Source: Dirinaria sp. TL-2023a (taxonomy: Eukaryota). From it: a DNA stretch of 46,516 nucleotides. The stretch covers positions 62,001-108,516 of the forward strand of contig JAVEBF010000001.1 in NCBI GenBank assembly GCA_051941275.1, written 5' to 3'. Position numbers and translations under genes: made by a program. Below, one piece after another: positions 2,577 to 35,160 of this stretch; positions within the stretch are counted from its first letter, which is position 1; each line of letters begins with the position of its first letter. A model generated the notes under the pieces. It was given only the letters and a program-made list of their open reading frames with translations. It had not been told where the DNA came from and did not search any database.

Positions 2577-4587
2577 ATGCAGTTCTCTTTTTGCTCCTCC
2601 TTCCTCGCCCTCCTCTTCGCTACCGATACCGCCCTTGGCTCCCCTCTCCATACATGTTATCCTTTCTCCGTCAAAGATTCACACAATGTGCCTAGGAAAT
2701 GGTCGAGGGTTGGGCCTGCATCTGCCGAACATCCGATAACCTTAAACATTGGTCTCAAGCAGGAGAAGTTCGCCGAGCTGGAAAGGCATCTGTACGAAGG
2801 TAAGGAGCCCTTCTCGGCTGATCTCATAATCGATTGCATACTGACACACTGAATTACTAGTCTCTACTCCGTCACACGCTCGTTATGGCAAGCATCTTAC
2901 CACTGAGCAAGTCAATGCGCTTGTCGCTCCAAGTCGCGACGCCCTATCACAGGTGCACGACTGGCTGCAAGACCAAGGCATCGACTCCGCCAAACTAAGC
3001 TATACCCCCGCCAAAGACTGGATCAGCGTCAAGCTCCCCGTGAAAACCATCGAGAGGCTCCTTAACACCAATTATTCTGTCTTCAAGCACGAAGATGGTA
3101 CGCATCTCGTCCGAGCACCTGCATGGTCATTGCCCACTCACCTCCACAAACACATTGATACTATTCAACCTACAAACTCCTTTTTCCGGCCGAATGCGAG
3201 GAGGAGCACACTGAAAACCGTCAAGCCAATCGCTGAGATAGCTAAGGAGCCAGCTCGAATGGTGTCCAATGCGCTAAAGTCTTCAAAGGATCTGACAGTC
3301 GCTCAGGCCTGCAATACCAGCGCAGTCACACCTACGTGCCTACGCACCTTATATGGCACGATTGACTATGTACCTAAAGTACCAGGAAAAAATCAAGTGG
3401 CCCTAAACAATTACCTCGGGGAAGCTAACAACCGCTCTGATGTCTCCATATTCCTGCAGCGCTTTCGTCCGGACGCTGTCTCTGCTGCCCAGACTTTTAC
3501 GGTCAAAATCGTCAATGGTGGCGACAATCAGCAGACTCCCGATAACGCTACGCAACTGGCAGCTGGCAAAGATCTTGAGGGAAATCTGGATGCCGAGACC
3601 ATCCTGGGAATTGACTATCCCACCCCTCTCACAACCTACAATACTGGCGGCATGCCTCCTTTCATGGCCGATGCCAACACGCCTACCGATACCAACGAGG
3701 TACCTATACCCCTCCCTATGTCGATCCTTTTCTTCACCTCATCCACAAGCTAACAGTTTCGTATACAGCCGTACTTGACCTGGTTGCAATATGTCCTTGC
3801 TCAAAAAAACATCCCTCAAGTGATTTCTTCCTCTTACGGAGATGACGAACAATCCGTTCCCTTTTCTTATGCTAAGTCTGTTTGCAATCAATTCGCCCAA
3901 CTCGGTGCACGGGGTGTGACCTTCCTGTGTTCCTCCGGCGACGATGGTGTTGGCGCATCAGGCAAATGTTTCACCAACGACGGTAAAAACACATCTACAT
4001 TCCTGCCATCTTTCCCAGACGGCTGTCCCTACGTAACTTCAGTGGGCGCAACTAAGAATTTCAATCCGGAAGTCGCAGCCTTTGACCCGCGCAACAATTT
4101 TGCAAGTGGCGGCGGATTCTCCAACTACTTCCAACGTCCAGCTTATCAAAATACAGTCGTACCGGCATATATCAGCAGCCTAGGGACCCAATTCTCGGGA
4201 TTGTATAACAAGACGGGTAGAGGCTACCCGGACATCGCAGCGCAGGGTCAGCGCTTCGTCACCATCTGGAACGGGACCGTCGTCCTTCTTGACGGCACTA
4301 GCGCTTCCACGCCTACCGCCGCGGGCATCCTGACACTCGTCAACGACGCGCTAATCGCGGCGGGTAAATCACCCTTGGGGTTCGTGAATCCGGCACTTTA
4401 CAGCGGGCTCTATAAATCTTTCACAGACATCACTAGCGGAAGCGCAATCGGATGCAACTCGACCGGTTTTCCTGCGAAGACGGGCTGGGACGCAGTGACA
4501 GGCTTCGGTACGCCGTATTTCCCGAGCGTGTCGGCCGCGGCGTTGAATGGGACAAATTCCACTGGTGTGTATTACAAGCGCCGATAG
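2577..4587 (+). CDS. Secreted S53 sedolisin / tripeptidyl-peptidase (SED/TPP1-like), 3 exons 2577-2799, 2861-3699, 3769-4587, ~626 aa
   Basis: Signal peptide MQFSFCSSFLALLFATDTALG; prodomain (LYEVSTPSHARYGKHLT, WSLPTHLHKHIDTIQPT); catalytic E-x3-D (EGNLD), oxyanion SSGDDG, catalytic Ser GTSAS, Ca-binding GWDAVTGFGTP. Introns 2800-2860 (GTAAGG..TAG) and 3700-3768 (GTACCT..CTAAC..CAG) join the frames (NE|PYLTWL). Confidence 0.96.
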
Positions 4588-21496: not shown

Positions 21497-23601
21497 ATGA
21501 GCGAGCCAGTCCCGGCCAGCAATGTCACAACAAACGAGAAACAAGGCCTGCGGGAAGATCTGGCTGCGCTCGAGAAACACGATCCGCACAGTTCGACCGT
21601 GGAGCGACCGACCCAGGCGGAGAAAGAGGCGGCTGATGTAGGGAAGCATGACCCAGCTGAAAGTCTAACTGCGCCGGAAACTACGCTGTTGCCCACAAAC
21701 ACAACTGGCAACGAAAAGGCGAGGGATGAGGAGGCAGGAAGGGTCTATCATGGGACGAGTGGAGTTCAGGCCCAAGCAGAAGACGTAAAGTCTCCGGACC
21801 CCAATATCGTCGACTGGGATGGCCCGGATGACCCGGACAATCCTGTCAATTGGAAGAATAGCTTAAAATGGACCAATATCGCCACTGTCTCTGCTATCAC
21901 CTTCATCACGTAAGCTCAGCTTGCTAGTCCACCGTCGAATACTTCCGATCCCTCTCAAACTGATTACCACCATCTCGTGTCACCACTCGCAGTGATCGGG
22001 TGGTTTTTGTAACGAAGCATGACCCGTGCTGATCGACTCCAGGCCCCTGGCGTCATCCATGTTTGCTCCTGGCATCCCAGAAGTAATGGCCGGATTCCGC
22101 TCTACCAATAGCCAGCTCGCCTCCTTTGTCGTTTCAGTCTATGTTCTTGGCTACGCCTTTGGTCCCCTGATTATCGCCCCGCTTTCGGAGCTCTATGGCC
22201 GCCTCCCCACTTATCACATTTGCAACGCCTTATTCGTTATTTTCACTGTCGCGTGTGCCGTCGCCAGTAACCTTAACATGCTTATTGGCTTTCGATTTCT
22301 GGCGGGCACGTTTGGTTCCTGTCCGCTCACACTCGGCGGTGGGACCGTTGGGGATATGATTGTCCAAGAAAAAAGAGGCGGCATGATGGCTGTGATTGCT
22401 ATGGGACCGCTAACGGGGCCTGTGGTCGGTCAACCCAGTCACTAAAGTATTGGTCTATCGTTAAATGAAGACTGCTAATAGTTAAGCGGATGGAATGCAG
22501 ATTGGGCCAGTGATTGGCGGGTATCTGAGCCAGGCTAGAGGCTGGAGATGGGTGTTTTGGCTGATCACTATCGTCGTGAGTTCTCCTACCAAAGATTCAA
22601 TGCTCGTGTGAGCTGACCCAATAAGGCTGGTACAATCACCCTTGTTGGTTTTGCCTGTCTACGAGAGTCGTATCCGCCAGTCCTTCTGGAACGTAAAGCC
22701 AAGAAGCTTCGCAAAGAGACCGGCAACCCCGAATTGAGATCGAAGTTGGCATCACCATACACACCCGGGCAACTCTTCAGGCTCTCCATAATTCGTCCTG
22801 CTAAGATGCTCTGTCTCTCTCCGATTGTCCTGGCGTTGTCCACTTTTATGGCAGTTGTTTATGGCTATCTCTACCTTCTCTTCACAACGATTACTGAGGT
22901 TTTCGAAGGAGCCTACGGCTTTTCTGCCGGCGCTGTCGGCTTGACTTATCTCGGTCTTGGGATTGGCTCTTTCTTAGGTCTCTTCATCTTCGGGGCAGTC
23001 AGTGACCGAATCGTCAAAGCTAAGTCAGCTGCTGGCGAGATGAAGCCTGAGTACCGCTTACCGCCTATGATCCCAGGCGCTTGGTCAATACCAATTGGAC
23101 GTATGTATCATGAGCTTGTTCGAGTGGACACCTCTAACATGTTCAGTATTCATTTATGGATGGACAACTGATAAGCATGTGCATTGGATTGTGCCCATCA
23201 TCGGAACCGGATTAGGTATTCCTACTTTATTTGTAGCTCCAATCCGCTCACTGACAATTTGATAGTGGGCGTCGGGTTGCTGGCTGCATTTGTCAGTGCT
23301 TGACTCCAGACATGAAATAGGTCTCCAGAATGCTGACAGTTGATAGATGCCTATCTCAACGTACCTCGTCGACGCATTCACCCTTCACGCGGCTTCGGCA
23401 CTCGCGGCAAATACGGTCCTCCGCTCTCTGATGGGGGCCTTTCTGCCATTGGCGGGGCCGAAGATGTACGCCACCCTTGGTCTTGGATGGGGGAACTCGT
23501 TGCTTGCATTTATAGCCTTAAGTCTGTGTCCGATACCTTGGATATTTTACAAATATGGTGAGAGGATACGGAAGAATCCAAGGTTTCAAGTTACATTTTA
23601 G
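21497..23601 (+). CDS. MFS drug:H+ antiporter, DHA1 family (Tpo1/Flr1/Caf5-like), 7 exons, ~564 aa
   Basis: DHA1 signature [16 protein letters not shown], motif A-like [75 protein letters not shown]. Introns 21910-22042, 22425-22500, 22576-22625, 23101-23146, 23216-23265 and 23292-23346 are all GT..AG and give a 1695-nt open CDS. Confidence 0.95.
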
Positions 23602-26422: not shown

Positions 26423-28136
26423 ATGCAAGATCTACTCGACAGGAGTATCGACGCCAATATTTCAGGGGCGTCGAGCTTGAAATCGGAAGAAAATGCTCTT
26501 GGCGGGTTAGGCGTACATGAAGACTTTGACACGGAAGGGATAAGTGCAGAGGAATTAAAGTACTGGGCGCAAATTGCACCGGAGGACCAAAGACTGGCCC
26601 TCGTGGAAGAACCGACTTTCGAAGAGACTATAAATTCAAGAAGTTCCCACCGTGAGAAGTACCAGTCTGCTCGAAATGCGAATGGCTAGCTAATGGAGAT
26701 TGCCTGCAGGGTTAACAAGCGAGCAAGCTGTAGCCCGAGTAGAGCTCTTCGTCCGCAGCCACCACTTTTTCCAGAAAGCCGCAACATCTTTCACAACATC
26801 TGAAAGGCGAAAGTTTGAACGTGATACATACGATTTCGCGCGGTCTATGAGCTTTTCTAAAAGAGATGCCAAGAAGCAAGTCATCAAAGCGCGGCACCTT
26901 TGCGGTGAAGCAGACTATGACAGCGAACAGTCGGCGCTTGGTGGTGAGGTCGATGACCCAGCTGCAGTGACTAATATAAAGTCTACCCAAGCTGGAACAT
27001 TGATCAGTGACCAAGGAAGTACTCGCTCTGATCAGCAAAGCCAAGATCCTGCACACGCTCCATGTAAGGGAATTCCTGCAGGAGACAGATCTCAGAGCTC
27101 TAAAAAGAGGAAGTCTCGCACTGGAAGCGGCTCAGCAACCGCTACGAATGCCAAAAAGAGGAAATGCAGCAATAGAAACGTACATAAGGGCCACGAACTC
27201 TCTTCAACGACCAAGGACTGTCGGTCACATCGAGCAAACAAAGATTTGCTAAATCGACATCACGACCGAAAAGCGGATCTCCGAGGTAACGGAGTAGCTT
27301 CAAAACCTAATATAACTATGACTCGTAACACGGCATTCACCGGACGTAGCCTAGGCGTGGACTCAACGAAAGCCCAATCTCCAGCCAAGTCCAGTGGGAG
27401 AAACGGCATCCAAGGAAGGGTAGAATCCGATCAGAGGGGATCAGATGGTAATTTAAGCTCGCCTCTACTCAACGGTACAGAAGAACCAAAATTAGCGAAG
27501 CATTTAGAGCGCAGGCACAAGCGAAATCTCAGAAGGCAACGCCGCAAAGAACAGCGACTTTCTCAAATGCCTATAAACCAGGCTAGGTCGCCGGCGGGAA
27601 TCGAAGCTGCTTCTCCAGAGGCCTCGTTTGCTGGAAGCAGCTCCAGACCCTCAAACGAAGTGCAATCACTCGAACCCAGAAGTCAAAAGGAAGCGCACGA
27701 AAACTTTGTTCGATCCATGGAGCGTGATCCGGACGAACATGGACGGTTTAGCGGGCGGGAGAAGAAAGCTGGACAGCAGTCCCAAGAAATGACTCCAGTT
27801 TTAAATGCTGAACTACGGGCATTGAACGCTGACACGAGAAAACAACAGATCAATTCATTCAATCAAGGTATTCTGAGGAAAGAATCGAAAGCTCTGAAGG
27901 ATGACATCAAAGATATGAAAGCGGAGCAAGAGGAACTTGAGGAGGACGAGAGAGCCGGTAAGCGGGAGATTGAGAAAAAGGTGGAGGATCTTGAAATTCA
28001 GGGCAAAAGCAAAGAAACTCCTGAAGCTACATTGGAGTTGTCACAACTCAAGCCCAGAAAGCGAAGAAAGAAGTACAAAGGCATTGCCGACTCAGATGAT
28101 GTGGATGTGGATTTTCGCGCTCCGATGATTCCGTAG
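26423..28136 (+). CDS. Basic, largely low-complexity hypothetical protein (ORF1 of the glycosylase locus), exons 26423-26651, 26710-28136, ~551 aa
   Basis: Intron 26652-26709 (GTGAGA..CTAAT..CAG) joins ORFs 26402-26689 and 26700-28136 in phase. Small helical block FVRSHHFF..FTTSERRKFERDTYDFARSMSFSKRDAKKQVIKAR; NLS-like clusters (KKRKSR, KKRK, KPRKRRKKYK); coiled-coil near the C-terminus; ends DVDFRAPMIP*. Confidence 0.8.
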
Positions 28137-28175
28137 GCATGACCGCTGCTGATGAGGGAGCGTCCTTTGATCATC
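28109..28175 (+). other. Candidate -1 programmed ribosomal frameshift signal (G_GAU_UUU + 8-nt spacer + structured RNA)
   Basis: Heptamer 28109-28115 is in the X_XXY_YYZ-like phase of ORF1 (GTG GAT TTT). The -1 frame is open from 28100 to the glycosylase stop at 29578. GAUGAUU 28124-28130 can pair with GAUCAUC 28169-28175. Confidence 0.5.
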
Positions 28176-29578
28176 CACACCTAGTCCTAGTACCCTCGCT
28201 GAGGGAATTGCCAGAGCCAGCCTGCGTCAAGAAACGTAGAGCACCCAAAAATAGTACAAAGGCGAGAGCAAATGAGAATGAGGAAGGTCTAGCAAATAGT
28301 CCGCAAACCCTGGTTTACAAGGACATCGACACCCGCTTTCCTTGGAGCGACTCTGACCTCTCCAGCGCACCATCCAGTCCTGTGCCACCTTCGCCGGTCT
28401 TGGAGAGATATAAGCTTCTCTCTGCCCCCAAAGTATATGCCAAGGATTCCCCTCATCACTCTTCCTCTCCAGCTATCTCCACACCATCGTCCACACCTTC
28501 TACCAAGGCCGCTTCCAAAGCTCGGCTCGTCACTAAGCGCAAGCTCTCTGCGCCCAAAATCTCACCCTACTTCCCCACCCCGCCGACAGCGGTGAAAAGC
28601 AAGACTCCCCGCTCTAAACGACCCGCAGCCTCCTGTATTCCCTTCCCTCCCCTCTCCTCCTCTCGCTTCGGCCTTGTCCAAGAAGCTCTTTCCACCCAAC
28701 CATTCCGTCTCCTCATCGCCGTCATATTCCTCAACAAGACCCGTGGCGCTGTCGCACTCCCCGTCTTCTTCGCGCTGATGGAGCGCTACCCCACCCCTGA
28801 GGCTCTGGCAGAAGCCGAACTGGAAGATATAGTGGGGTTCTTCAGTACGCTAGGGTTGCAAAACCAGCGCGCGAAGAAAGTGCTGGGGTTGGCGAAGGAG
28901 TGGGTAAGCGAGGCACCGAGCCGAGGCCGGCGGTGGCGAAGGAAGGATTACCCCCAGAAACGGGACGGGAGAGACATCCGCGCGGAGGAAGAGCCGATCG
29001 CAGACGACGATGAGGATCCCAGAGTGGCGTGGGAAGTGGGCCGACTTCCTGGAATCGGAGCGTATGGGATCGATTCCTGGCGAATCTTTTGCCGAGATCG
29101 ATTACGTGGTATTGAGGCCCCGATCATGTCTGAGTACGTTTCTCCGTTGCCGAGTACAGCAGACGAGGGTGGGGATACACATGATAATGACAAAAAGGCC
29201 GAGCACGAAATGCGTGAAAAAGAGATGAAGGGCGAGTGGACGCGCGTGCTGCCGCTGGATAAAGAGCTCCGAGCCTATTTGCGCTGGCGGTGGCTTCGGC
29301 TGGGTTGGCAATGGGATCCGCTTACGGGAGAGCGGAGCCGTGCGAGTGAGCAGGTGATGAGGGAAGCGGAGGGCGGCGGTGTCATTGTTGAAGGGGAAGG
29401 TGGTGGGAGAGTGGCGACGATGAGCGAGGAGCCGAAAAGTGGTGAGGACGGAGGCAGTAATAATAAGATATTGAATGAGAACTCCGACCCGGTGACTGGA
29501 ATAGACTGCAGGGAGAAAGGTGGAAAGGTTAATGCCAGTGTAGATACTACAGAGAAGGAACAAGGTATAGTGGAATAG
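28139..29578 (+). CDS. MBD4-like HhH-GPD DNA glycosylase (G:T/G:U mismatch type); possibly expressed only as a fusion with upstream ORF1
   Basis: FGLVQEAL..PFRLLIAVIFLNKTRG..MERYPTPEALAEA..LGLQNQRAK; HhH plus catalytic Asp LPGIGAYGIDSWRIFC (compare MBD4 LHGIGKYGNDSYRIFC); PLDKELRAYLRW. No methyl-binding domain recognised. ATG lies 2 nt after the ORF1 stop. Confidence 0.9.
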   Translation: MTAADEGASFDHPHLVLVPSLRELPEPACVKKRRAPKNSTKARANENEEGLANSPQTLVYKDIDTRFPWSDSDLSSAPSSPVPPSPVLERYKLLSAPKVYAKDSPHHSSSPAISTPSSTPSTKAASKARLVTKRKLSAPKISPYFPTPPTAVKSKTPRSKRPAASCIPFPPLSSSRFGLVQEALSTQPFRLLIAVIFLNKTRGAVALPVFFALMERYPTPEALAEAELEDIVGFFSTLGLQNQRAKKVLGLAKEWVSEAPSRGRRWRRKDYPQKRDGRDIRAEEEPIADDDEDPRVAWEVGRLPGIGAYGIDSWRIFCRDRLRGIEAPIMSEYVSPLPSTADEGGDTHDNDKKAEHEMREKEMKGEWTRVLPLDKELRAYLRWRWLRLGWQWDPLTGERSRASEQVMREAEGGGVIVEGEGGGRVATMSEEPKSGEDGGSNNKILNENSDPVTGIDCREKGGKVNASVDTTEKEQGIVE

Positions 29579-30626
29579 TAGCGAGACTAATAAGCCAAAA
29601 GTGCATGAATGAGGATTGATTGACATATAGTACATAGCAAAGATATCCAAATGTAATAACAACAAGTCACATTAAATTGCTCATCTCCTATTTCCATACT
29701 TCGTGCTAAAACCGTTCTCCATCTCTGACTCCCTACTGCTACCGCGCTCTCAAGAGCGAGCACTATTCTGTGACTACGTTACGCCGTCAACCTCGACGAC
29801 GCCGATGGTCTCCGTATTTGCCTGTCTCTTCATATTTCACTGCCTCTGGTGACACTGCTTCAACAAAGATAAAGATGTGTGCGGTGATCTAATATTTTCC
29901 TGAAAGAAGCGCATCGAACCCACTCTGCATGCGGGTAAAGTGCAACCGAAAGCTTGCTCCGAGTGCGTATAAATGCAGACCCTGAGAGGTGATAGCCTCG
30001 CCCGTTTCGCCAGCCTGAACTGAAGGCCGTCATAACCGCGGAAGCAAGGGGCAGTGAGGAGCTCGAGTCGGATGAAGTGGGAGTGTTTGAGGTTGGGCTT
30101 GTCGAGGCCTTTGCCTTGACCGTGGAGATTTTGGAGGGTAGCGCTGCAGTGGACCGTCTTTGTCGGTGCCGAGGCCTTGGAAGTGGTTGATTGGGGCTTG
30201 TGAAGTCTTGGTGTATCTGTCAACTCGCCAAGGTGGACGTAGGGGACGGACCAAGTAGTAGAGCTTAAGAGCTAGGGCGTGGGGCGGTAGAGGCGGGAGG
30301 TAAAAGCGATTCTTGGTAGTATTCATTGGTTGTCGTTCAGTTATTTCAACGTGGTTTGGAAATTTGAAGTCGGCGTTACTTAATTCATCAATTTCGGTTC
30401 AAGATACTTTGTCTGGCTCTTAAGGAGTGGCGTGGTGAGAAAAGATCCTTCGTGTACTGAGAAAAGGAATCATCTAGTGACAATCCGGTCTTTCCGGGCG
30501 TAAGTCGAGGAGCAAAGGCGTTGTCTTAGAACTCAATGTAGTCCATGCATGAGGCTGCTGAGCGAAAGGCGAAAGCAATTCGTAATTTCGTAATAATTGT
30601 AACGTTTGAAGCGCAAGGCTCTCTGC

Positions 30627-32693: not shown

Positions 32694-33296
32694 TTACACG
32701 TCAGGTTCCGGCGGCAGCCACTCCCACGTCACCTTCGTTCTGCCGACCGATAGGTCTTCCAGTTTCTCAAACGCGCCAGGACTGAGATCGATGTCATGAG
32801 CGGCACAAGCCTCGCAACGATCTACCACTGTCAACACGATGCTCTTGTAGGTCTTGCTCTGACTGTTGAGATGCGTGGCCTTGAGAGTATGCCCGCAAAG
32901 AGGATCCGCATTAGGATTCGCGCCCTTGAGAGCTTGGTCGTAAATGACATGGCTGACGGCGCAGATGTCGTCGTTCTCGTGATTGATATGCCCGCAAGCT
33001 CCAAGGCCTGGCGCATAGAATGTCATGTCGCCTGTGTAGGTGTCGCCATCGGATGAGCCTCCCGGACCCTTTTTGCCGCCTTGCTGGCCATCTCCTTGCT
33101 GGTTGATGCTTGGTTGATCGTTCCTAGAAGCTGTAGCATTAGAATCATTATTCATTGGGCACGACAATACGACAAATTGAGAAGGTTGAATGCCTTACTT
33201 CTTATGTGTCAGGATTTCCACCGGTATAGCAATACCTGCCGCTATGACTAGCAACGCCACACCACCAAATAATAACTTCTGTGTTCTAGTAGGCAT
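32694..33296 (-). CDS. RlpA-like double-psi beta-barrel protein (expansin-related / loosenin / Asp f 7-like) with N-terminal hydrophobic anchor, exons 33296-33199, 33123-32694, ~175 aa
   Basis: GDMTFYAPGLGACG, ICAVSH, NADPLCG, VVDRCEACAAHDIDLSPGAF, VTWEW. Exon 1 MPTRTQKLLFGGVALLVIAAGIAIPVEIL; intron 33124-33198 (GTAAGG..CTAAT..TAG) restores the frame. Confidence 0.88.
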
Positions 33297-34084
33297 CTTG
33301 AGGAATCGCAACAGCACAATTAAATAATCCAGGCATCCAGAAATCCAACAGCGAGCACATGATTATATACTCGTAAGCAAAAAATGAGCAGCAAATGAAA
33401 TGAAAGCCAGTACTCCAAAGCGCAGACTCATAAAGATTTAGTGGCACATCGACAGAGTTGTTTGTTTCGCTGATACAGGGTGTCTAGCGAGTCACAAGAT
33501 GTGGCAGGAGAGAACACTCAGCCAGAAAAGATTTCAAACCAATAATGGATGTAAAAAATGATAGACTCACGCTACCTAGAGGTTTCATCGAAACTATTCA
33601 TCTTGCAAGCAATATCACGAAGTAGAGCACGATGCGGAAAGCCATGAACTAAACAAGTATGTCCCTTCATGGTGTTTGATGTCCTGAACTGGCAAGTGGA
33701 GAAGCCGAGGATCGGACAGATGAGATTCCTTGGTTGGACATTTTGGCTCTATCATCTCAATCCATCATCTCGCTCCATCGCCATGTCAGTGTGCTATTAC
33801 CGTACTCTTCGATTATGGATTCGCAGAAAGACCATCTTATCGCGTCTGACCAATCAGCATTCCGACATTTCTGCTTTTACATATCGTCACGTGCTCAAAG
33901 CCTCGGCTAGAACGCTTCGCCATCATCGACTTCGATCCATATCTCCGTCAAACCTCAATCGCCATAAAGCGTCATTGGCAACTCTGACACTTAAGACTAC
34001 AAACTTAAAGTAGCAGAGCTTATCGTACGCGACGAGGCCCTGCGCGTACCTGCACCTCTGATCGTCCCTCTCTCTCACTCCATA

Positions 34085-35160
34085 ATGGCCTCTCTCCGCC
34101 ACACCACCCGCCGCCTTCTCCCCACCACTTTCCGGCCCTTGAAAACCCCACTTTGTCGCTCCTATGCGACTGTCGAGCCCATATCCGCTGTTGGGGAAGC
34201 AATGAGTGCCTCGCAACCGCCCGTGTCTGAAAAAAAGACGTCCACCATCCCCGAGCCCTCAAAGGACAAAGACTCCAAGATCAAAACCTTTCACGTCTAC
34301 CGCTGGTCGCCTGATTCACCCACGGAAAAACCCCGGATGCAATCATACACATTGGATTTGAATAAGACGGGTCCGATGGTGCTGGACGCATTGATCAGGA
34401 TCAAGAACGAGGTGGACCCGACATTGACCTTCAGAAGGAGTTGTCGAGAGGGTATCTGTGGGAGTTGTGCAATGAATATAGATGGAGTGAATACGCTGGC
34501 TTGCTTATGTATGTCTTGCAGACAGTACCAGTTACTCCATCTCAAAGCTCCCTTGGAGGGGCCTGAATCACTTGGGACACCACTGACCACGATCTGCGGA
34601 AAAATTAGGTCGAATCCCTACAAACACGAATCAAGAGACGAGAATCTATCCTCTGCCCCATACCTACGTTGTCAAGGATCTTGTCCCCGACCTGACGCAA
34701 TTCTACAAGCAATACAAATCTATCAAGCCTTACCTCCAGCGCGAGACGAAATCAGAAGATGTACGTCGCCTTCAACTTAATCTACCACCTCTCTCTCCCC
34801 CTCTCTTCTCAGCTAACACCCTTTTCGCTACTGCAGGGCAAAGAAAACCGCATGTCCCCAGCGGACCGCAAGAAGCTCGACGGGTTGTACGAATGCATCC
34901 TCTGCGCGTGCTGCTCCACGTCCTGCCCGTCCTACTGGTGGAACAGCGAGGAATACCTAGGCCCCGCCGTGCTGCTGCAGTCCTACCGCTGGCTCGCAGA
35001 CAGCAGAGACGAGCACCACGAAGAGCGGAAGAGCATGTTGGATAACAGCATGAGTCTGTATCGCTGCCACACGATCATGAATTGCAGCCGGACGTGTCCG
35101 AAGGGGTTGAACCCAGGGAAGGCGATCCAAGAGATTAAAAAGAGCATGGCGCTTTCGTGA
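34085..35160 (+). CDS. sdhB: Succinate dehydrogenase iron-sulfur subunit (complex II), exons 34085-34508, 34609-34760, 34837-35160, 299 aa
   Basis: Arg-rich mitochondrial presequence; [22 protein letters not shown] (2Fe-2S), [39 protein letters not shown]; introns 34509-34608 and 34761-34836 are canonical. Confidence 0.99.

Follow-up and report, generated by a model that had tools for sequence, protein, structure and literature searches.

A split MBD4-like DNA glycosylase gene in the lichen fungus Dirinaria and a candidate −1 ribosomal frameshift at its frame break

Programmed −1 ribosomal frameshifting in eukaryotes is well documented mainly in viruses and in retroelement-derived genes, and claims for ordinary cellular genes are contested. 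In the +1 direction, ABP140 and EST3 are known as conserved frameshift genes of yeast. This article examines a locus within 46,516 nucleotides (nt) of DNA from Dirinaria sp. TL-2023a (GenBank assembly GCA_051941275.1, contig JAVEBF010000001.1, positions 62,001 to 108,516 of the forward strand); this whole stretch is referred to as the window, and all coordinates are counted from its first letter. An open reading frame (ORF) for a basic protein, ORF1, is followed here in the −1 frame by an ORF for an MBD4-like DNA glycosylase, ORF2, and the two overlap at G_GAT_TTT, a candidate −1 slippery heptamer. The leading explanation, to which we assign a probability of roughly 0.4, is −1 frameshifting at G_GAU_UUU that began as the rescue of a 1-nt deletion. 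Independent initiation at the glycosylase AUG ranks close behind, as a possibility that we regard with some doubt.

The closest described slip sites are viral. According to PMC8780742, the yeast L-BC virus shifts by −1 at GGAUUUU, and PMC5009743 reports the same slip site for pea enation mosaic virus (PEMV). As these sources describe them, the gag-pol junction of L-BC, a fungal totivirus, and the corresponding junctions of umbraviruses and dianthoviruses (G_GAU_UUU in PEMV) have the identical heptamer in the same phase, an upstream ORF that stops a few codons later, and a downstream enzyme in the −1 frame that is, as it would be here, a C-terminal fusion; in the case of L-BC, the ribosomes are fungal as well. 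The Dirinaria locus differs in that it is chromosomal and contains an intron, where the others are viral RNAs, and in having no significant 3′ stimulatory structure. Unlike a viral gag-pol junction, its overlap appears to be the relic of a once-continuous ORF, not a designed junction.

Two further groups of cases are relevant. The yeast +1 genes (OAZ1 antizyme, ABP140 and EST3) are likewise chromosomal and fungal, with a break that is conserved across species and selection on both halves; they shift by +1 at slow or stop codons, whereas the shift here would be −1 at a tandem-slippage heptamer. The comparative signature found at this locus is of the kind that led to the accepted yeast cases; conservation of the antizyme frameshift is treated in PMC1874602. 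Corrective frameshifting, as outlined in the review by Atkins et al. (2016), is similar in that slippage at a low level, on a slippery run close by, makes up for an indel in an otherwise continuous gene. The cases given there are mostly mitochondrial or viral, whereas here the break would have lasted through speciation in a nuclear gene, and the non-shifted product may itself be functional.

Anatomy of the locus and nature of its products

ORF1 begins with the ATG at 26423 and comprises 551 codons once a 58-nt intron is removed. Its first exon (26423–26651; all features of the ORF1/ORF2 unit are on the forward strand) encodes the N-terminus MQDLLDRS.., in agreement with the NCBI model P0001 (hypothetical protein Q9191_000030 of the metagenome-assembled Dirinaria sp. 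TL-2023a; 972 amino acids (aa), 100% identical to the window). The intron (26652–26709; GTGAGA..GCTAAT..CAG) is a prediction of this model, not derived from RNA; the corresponding junction, ..SSHR/LTSEQ, is present in P0001. The second exon (26710–28136), in frame 0, encodes a basic, low-complexity region homologous to two database proteins, P0121 and P0122. It finishes with ..GTG GAT TTT CGC GCT CCG ATG ATT CCG TAG, which reads ..DFRAPMIP and then stop (TAG, 28134–28136).

ORF2 lies in the −1 frame and extends from the ATG at 28139 to 29578 (479 codons and a stop). This is the first ATG of the −1 frame, and it stands 2 nt past the ORF1 TAG. The −1 frame is closed on the 5′ side by a TGA at 28097–28099 and is open from behind it through 29578; the stretch that is open in both frames is 28100–28133 only (34 nt). 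It contains the heptamer (28109–28115), which is in phase with ORF1; read in the −1 frame, the same letters are the Gly-Phe-(Ser) codons of the ancestral gene. From the heptamer up to the ATG (28109–28138), translation and motif matches indicate that the ancestral coding frame is intact; its −1-frame codons spell GFSRSDDSVG, and the ORF1 TAG supplies the final two bases of Val GTA and the first G of Gly GGC. A tandem repeat, GATGTG GATGTG GAT (28098–28112), stands just 5′ of the heptamer and runs into it; by alignment with the sister group described below, this is a possible site of the ancestral 1-nt loss. The repeat encodes DVDVD, for which the sister group has no counterpart, and in a 201-nt fold it can pair with ATCATCCACAC at 28170–28180.

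There is no AG within 28100–28134, and hence no splice acceptor able to serve the −1 codons there. Nor does the −1 frame contain an AUG or near-cognate start codon over 28100–28138. With neither an acceptor nor a start codon, the −1 codons can be translated only if a ribosome changes frame, somewhere from 28100 to about 28115. By arithmetic on the frames, a ribosome that shifted by −1 on the heptamer would make a product of 1032 residues, joined at ..DVDVDF/SRSDDSVGMTAADEG; the predicted transframe tryptic peptide is GIADSDDVDVDFSR and the adjoining one SDDSVGMTAADEGASFDHPHLVLVPSLR. An earlier note, drawn up by a model from the letters of this DNA, had proposed the positions of the TAG, the ATG, the TGA, the overlap and the heptamer, lengths of 551 aa for ORF1 and of about 1032 aa for the transframe product, and an MBD4-like identity for the glycosylase. 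All of these positions are confirmed on the sequence, the arithmetic agrees for both lengths, and the identity is borne out by the searches that follow.

ORF2 matches the Pfam family HhH-GPD (PF00730) at about 28649–29113, with 31.8 bits against a cut-off of 26.2. It has 34 matches among PDB entries, and the best 15 are all MBD4 (E values of 5e-18 to 2e-17). The segment GIGAYGIDSW of ORF2 is aligned with GIGKYGNDSY of 4ea4; in the aligned block (GIGAYGIDSWRIF in ORF2, GIGKYGNDSYRIF in MBD4) the Asp of G-x-G-x-Y-G-x-D-S is retained, and this Asp is presumably the catalytic residue of an MBD4-type glycosylase. Mammalian MBD4, a thymine/uracil mismatch glycosylase, thus resembles ORF2 through its HhH-GPD domain. 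The two differ elsewhere: no MBD family is matched in Pfam at E ≤ 0.01 by ORF1, its exon 1 or ORF2, and the N-terminal partner here is an unrelated basic region in another frame, for which Pfam gives no family at all and a search of the ESM Atlas with ORF1 gave no match. ORF2 therefore appears to be MBD4-like in its glycosylase domain alone.

Transcript data come from one lichen-metagenome RNA run, which contains 5% of the sampled words and yields three short contigs of a relative that is 92–97% identical. One of these contigs (29030–29304) has nine synonymous and eight non-synonymous codon changes when read in the ORF2 frame, and ratios of 4:14 and 2:15 in the other two frames. The glycosylase frame is under purifying selection in the Dirinaria lineage.

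Origin and distribution of the frame break

The best homologues of the fused model, P0002–P0008 (790–832 aa), pass without a break from an ORF1-like region through ..KKHKSSESGFPHPNDSVGVTAADEG.. into the glycosylase. DNA of this sister group is available as five loci on metagenome contigs, three of which (L001, L002 and L005) cover the junction. Each of the three has a single stop-to-stop ORF, of 775, 870 and at least 756 codons respectively (the last contig ends inside the ORF), that runs through ..GFPHPNDSVGVTAADEG. All three read TCG GGT/GTT TTT CCC CAT CCC AAT GAT TCA GTA GGC GTG ACC GCT GCT GAT GAG GGG at this point. In L001 (positions 3900–4000; protein P0010), about 95 codons of L002 and L005 are gone from the ORF1-like region and ..KRKSKE is directly joined to KKHKSSES; the conserved LRALNA..VKDDIKD..AGKRK segment has been deleted in frame.

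The same linker is recognisable further afield. Fused models of Lecanoromycetes, from Teloschistales and other groups, contain GFSKSDDSVSMTATDEG (P0019), GFLRSDDSAGMTAADEG (P0022) or RFSKSNDSARMTAADEG (P0012), and a search with the linker motif finds it in 39 of 234 collected proteins. Its forms include GFSKSDDSVS (P0019) and GFLRSDDSAG (P0022), with related ones in P0012, P0015, P0023, P0126, P0166 and P0002–P0008. In a quick maximum-likelihood tree of the glycosylase region (36 rows, with 8 rows that have no anchor motif left out and a careful search unfinished), the window groups with P0123, a glycosylase described below (support 99); this pair is sister to P0002–P0008 (97), and Teloschistales come next. 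Since the sister group and more distant Lecanoromycetes hold one continuous frame, the ancestral state is a single uninterrupted ORF, and the frame break is derived.

The closest relatives have the break. When the C-terminal third of ORF1 was used as the query, two proteins came up, P0121 (428 aa) and P0122 (425 aa). Over about 428 residues, P0121 shares 56.5% identity with ORF1 and P0122 47.3%; between the two of them, the identity is 49.2%. Both are ORF1-only proteins, and their last residue coincides with that of the window ORF1: P0121 ends ..KKYKATADSDNANADFHAPMIL (..DFHAPMIL) and P0122 ..KKYKASADSDVEDVDFRTPMIL (..DFRTPMIL), compared with ..KKYKGIADSDDVDVDFRAPMIP (..DFRAPMIP) in the window. 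An exhaustive profile-free search added P0123 (461 aa), a glycosylase-only protein that is 72.8% identical to ORF2. It starts MTAADEGASFDHP (MTAADEG) at the Met equivalent to ATG 28139, has the same first 13 residues as ORF2, and is aligned with it in long invariant blocks without disruption. Because two divergent ORF1 relatives end at the same residue, the break is neither an error nor recent; judging by these records, ORF1 already stopped at this point, and the glycosylase ORF was intact, before at least three taxa diverged. A metagenome scan for DNA of this split clade returned sister-group loci only, and a scan of genome contigs found no locus.

These comparisons bear on several claims of the earlier note. 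The ORF1 end that it predicted to be conserved, DF-x-x-P-M-I, is present in both ORF1 relatives. Orthologues in one continuous frame, which it had named as evidence against frameshifting, do exist at three of three sister-group loci and beyond, and are not found among the closest relatives; they make the break derived and do not remove it, since the closest relatives have it too. The conserved −1 relation that it expected is consistent with P0123 starting at the same Met, and is read from the protein in that taxon. An assembly error or a recent mutation had been the first idea, given the continuous P0002–P0008, and was dropped when P0121 and P0122 proved to end like ORF1. An indel at 28124/5, suggested by the alignment of CCC AAT with CCG AT, was also dropped, as GFS[KR]SDDS shows that the −1 frame is ancestral from 28109 on.

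A separate irregularity occurs in the Physcia stellaris model P0025, which reads ..GFQSPMIHDAETADEG. Its residues ~583–605 read ..ISGFQSPMIHDAETADEG, where QSPMIH resembles the ancestral S-x-S-D-D-S nucleotides one base out of frame; the protein is back in frame before TADEG, which reflects either two frameshifts that compensate each other or errors at the T run. P0025 was considered as evidence for a frameshift common to Caliciales and rejected, since its Gly-Phe is in frame and its shift lies past the T run. The shift appears to be a separate event or an error, independent of the break in the Dirinaria clade. In the glycosylase tree, P0025 sits on a long, unplaced branch.

Constraint on the overlap and the case for −1 frameshifting

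The tail of ORF1, DFRAPMIP and stop, is a shifted reading of GGA TTT TCG CGC TCC GAT GAT TCC GTA G, which gives GFSRSDDSV in the −1 frame. The −1 peptide GFSRSDDSVG agrees with the Teloschistales linker (P0019, P0022) at 8 of the 10 positions ahead of the Met, more closely than does the sister group's own GFPHPNDSVG. Retaining this peptide means that about eight sites, synonymous or unconstrained in frame 0, have stayed unchanged (28109, 28112, 28115, 28118, 28121, 28124, 28130 and 28133). If the break precedes the divergence of the split clade, the chance of keeping them would be, as a rough estimate, 0.002–0.015, a range that rests on an assumed per-site retention of 0.45–0.6 and is not computed from data.

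Frame 0 is conserved in its turn. All three taxa share its Asp, Phe, Pro, Met and Ile as well as the stop, and this identity freezes the third base of GGA (A), of both GAT codons (T) and of GTA (A), positions that are synonymous in the −1 frame. Of the differences in frame 0, three in number, two (Arg to His via 28117 and Pro to Leu via 28132, with the relatives' codons assumed) are compatible with a −1-synonymous change; the third would change a −1-frame Arg to His, at a position that varies between K, R and H elsewhere. It looks as if both frames are constrained over 28109–28136, as in a real frameshift overlap.

Slippery heptamers in phase, counted as canonical X_XXY_YYZ (Y being A or T) together with GGATTTY, stand at 2 of the 949 codon positions of ORF1 and ORF2, and G_GAT_TTT is one of the two. 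From sequence statistics, a heptamer among the 4 to 11 admissible positions is expected by chance about 1–2% of the time. The other is a canonical T_TTA_AAT in ORF1 (27800–27806), where no −1 ORF of at least 80 aa is listed; it illustrates the chance occurrence of such motifs.

The favoured explanation can be stated as follows. A small clade of lichen fungi, comprising the Dirinaria bin and at least two other taxa, carries what was ancestrally a single gene, coding for an MBD4-type DNA glycosylase with a basic region at its N-terminus, with a fixed one-base frame break. The break lies in the Gly-Phe-Ser codons GGA TTT TCG or immediately 5′ of them; read in the new upstream frame, these codons become G_GAT_TTT. 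The majority of ribosomes would translate six more codons and stop at TAG 28134, releasing the 551-aa ORF1 protein. A minority would slip back by one base on G_GAU_UUU, with tRNA-Phe moving from UUU to UUU and tRNA-Asp from GAU to GGA. Back in the ancestral frame, these ribosomes would read SRSDDSVGM-TAADEG and then the glycosylase, producing the 1032-aa fusion. Such a system would have originated as corrective frameshifting after a 1-nt deletion, next to a Gly-Phe-Ser codon run that was slippery already, and been kept later. The single mRNA for both ORFs, the slippage and its efficiency are features that we infer, and a glycosylase-only product from AUG 28139 may coexist with the fusion.

Tentatively, then, the locus may be a chromosomal, non-retroelement fungal gene in which conserved −1 frameshifting makes a low-dose fusion of a basic region with a glycosylase, and the first such case in fungi; the literature search found no description of frameshifting in fungal MBD4-like genes or in lichen genes. 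If this is true, a frameshift mutation would have been tolerated and then fixed as a mode of expression that controls how much scaffold protein is made relative to a DNA-incising enzyme, and the locus would be a natural example of corrective frameshifting becoming programmed. Whatever the mechanism, a fused eukaryotic gene has here been split in a conserved way, which is unusual.

This picture is complicated by a number of observations that weigh against frameshifting. To our knowledge, −1 frameshifting is very rare in non-retroelement chromosomal genes of eukaryotes, and we know of no fungal case. The ancestral Gly-Phe-Ser codons, GGA TTT T(CG), largely account for the heptamer, whose frequency accordingly overstates the evidence. 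A stem-loop is predicted at 28117–28163 (a 7-bp stem of 28117–23 with 28157–63) and is not significant; it begins 2 nt past the heptamer, compared with a usual spacing of 5–9 nt between heptamer and stimulatory structure. The fold of 28116–28215 is no stabler than those of shuffled sequences (z = +1.0; 170 of 200 shuffles fold at least as well), and that of 28060–28260 is also not significant (z = −1.3; 16 of 200), the folding tool being one that predicts no pseudoknots. A GAUGAU/AUCAUC pairing is possible, as spotted by eye alone.

Comparison of codons adds to these points. The suppressed synonymous variation that the earlier note anticipated at the junction does not reach significance: synonymous identity to L002 at 28127–28159 is 8 of 10 codons against a mean of 0.43, among about 36 independent comparison windows, and a nucleotide-level element at the AUG, not −1 translation, could lie behind it. 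The highest such value against L002 in ORF1 is 9 of 10, at KDDIKDKAEQ (27897–27929, within the segment 27885–27947), where the identity may reflect codon bias for Lys, Asp and Glu. In the taxa of P0121, P0122 and P0123, the heptamer, the open −1 frame and the adjacency of the ORFs are putative, as is a glycosylase ORF 3′ of P0121 and P0122, and no RNA contig covers 28104–29029, the nearest ending at 28103. Taken together, the frameshift interpretation put forward in the earlier note is partly supported, by the conserved ORF1 end and the −1 codons, and is not helped by RNA structure. Finally, Met 28139 is widely conserved, even where it is internal; 12 of the 39 motif records begin there with nothing upstream, P0123 among them, and five more begin MS[MV]TAADE. 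This conservation, with the records that start at the Met, makes a glycosylase-only product from its own start plausible.

Alternatives, the deposited gene model and the surroundings

Such a product is the core of the alternative that survives best, namely gene fission. ORF1 would then be a stand-alone gene, and the glycosylase would be translated from AUG 28139, either on its own mRNA that starts inside ORF1 or by termination–reinitiation, with no frameshifting at all. This is a serious rival, though in our judgement somewhat doubtful. The AUG stands 2 nt past the ORF1 stop (TAGGCATG), the Met is conserved across Lecanoromycetes, and many fungi have glycosylase proteins of 540–640 aa that lack an ORF1-like region. 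The constant stop position in three taxa fits a constraint on stop–restart spacing, and the marginally raised nucleotide identity at the AUG could reflect an initiation element. Termination–reinitiation is used by caliciviruses and fungal victoriviruses, in which the stop and the next AUG are likewise within a few nt of each other; here, by contrast, the upstream ORF is long and cellular, and a restart makes no use of the conserved −1 codons. Fission gives no reason why these codons should still spell GFSRSDDSVG while ORF1 fell to 47–57% identity. Eukaryotic ribosomes normally reinitiate very poorly once they have translated an ORF as long as 551 codons. Neither a promoter nor a restart element came to light, nor did a TURBS-like element or a pseudoknot (18S-complementary and TURBS-like elements were not searched for), and the records that start at the Met are mostly automatic first-ATG ORF calls, so that they do not show the real N-terminus. 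If a restart or an internal promoter is responsible after all, the locus would be a dated natural example of gene fission via a single-base deletion.

The break might also be functionless, with the gene slowly decaying, or the glycosylase kept apart from ORF1, and the common stop a matter of ancestry only. Frameshift pseudogenes are common in fungal genomes, and the Physcia stellaris model, which reads a shifted frame over the same nucleotides, suggests a mutation-prone spot. Decay is nevertheless improbable for ORFs that are intact over 551 and 479 codons, for a glycosylase that aligns with P0123 without disruption and in whose frame synonymous changes are favoured, and for an arrangement that is the same in three taxa.

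Somewhat less probable again is that splicing joins the two ORFs. In the NCBI model, an intron at 27958–28136, from G/GTAAGC to the AG of the ORF1 TAG, produces the junction ..EEDERAG/MTAADEG and thereby the 972-aa protein Q9191_000030; used as an exitron, it would give this fusion when spliced and the ORF1 protein when retained. As a donor, GTAAGC agrees fairly well with the consensus of fungi, and the join keeps the reading frame. The segment is also dispensable in some taxa, as no more than about 10 residues separate EDERARGK from FSMTDDSAS in the distant P0166. As a constitutive intron, however, it is rejected, because P0121, P0122 and P0002–P0008 conserve, at the protein level, the 59 codons that it would take out; these codons include a basic patch, KPRKRRKKYK. 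The donor codons GGT AAG are GGC AAG in L002 and L005, no convincing branch point was seen by eye 5′ of 28136, and an RNA-library contig of the 97%-identical relative is unspliced across 27694–28103, including 27958, although it might derive from pre-mRNA or DNA. The exitron route would also leave out the conserved −1 codons.

The model itself is an ab initio prediction. There are 157 frame-restoring GT..AG pairs of 40–700 nt in this region, so that a gene finder always gets one, and finding one means little. The deposited gene model, and probably others of the family, bridges the break with an invented intron. Other funannotate-type models of the family range from 951 to 1409 aa and may contain similar fixes that bridge frame breaks. 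A 2023 paper on Teloschistales metagenomics describes Illumina sequencing, assembly by MEGAHIT or MetaSPAdes and funannotate ab initio models; the parts of it that deal with these steps do not mention Dirinaria, and the sequencing of the Dirinaria bin is assumed to have been similar.

A base missing through assembly or sequencing error would suit a metagenome bin with a break beside a T4 run and a short tandem repeat, but it is not credible, because three assemblies would need the same error: two divergent taxa have the same ORF1 end and shifted-frame tail, and a third starts its glycosylase at the same Met.

The ORF1/ORF2 unit is flanked by ordinary spacers, with a major facilitator superfamily (MFS) transporter gene about 0.8 kb before the ORF1 ATG and no recognisable gene in the approximately 3 kb 3′ of ORF2. 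The 3′ flank differs in the 92–97% identical relative: an 837-nt RNA-library contig matches the window over 88 nt only (29676–29763, 3′ of the glycosylase stop), with unlike sequence on both sides. Further out, the neighbours are MFS transporter fragments at 22023–23168, a DPBB_1 (expansin-like) ORF at 32697–33194 on the reverse strand, and at 33995–34777 an ORF for a 2Fe-2S protein of the succinate dehydrogenase type (Fer2_3).

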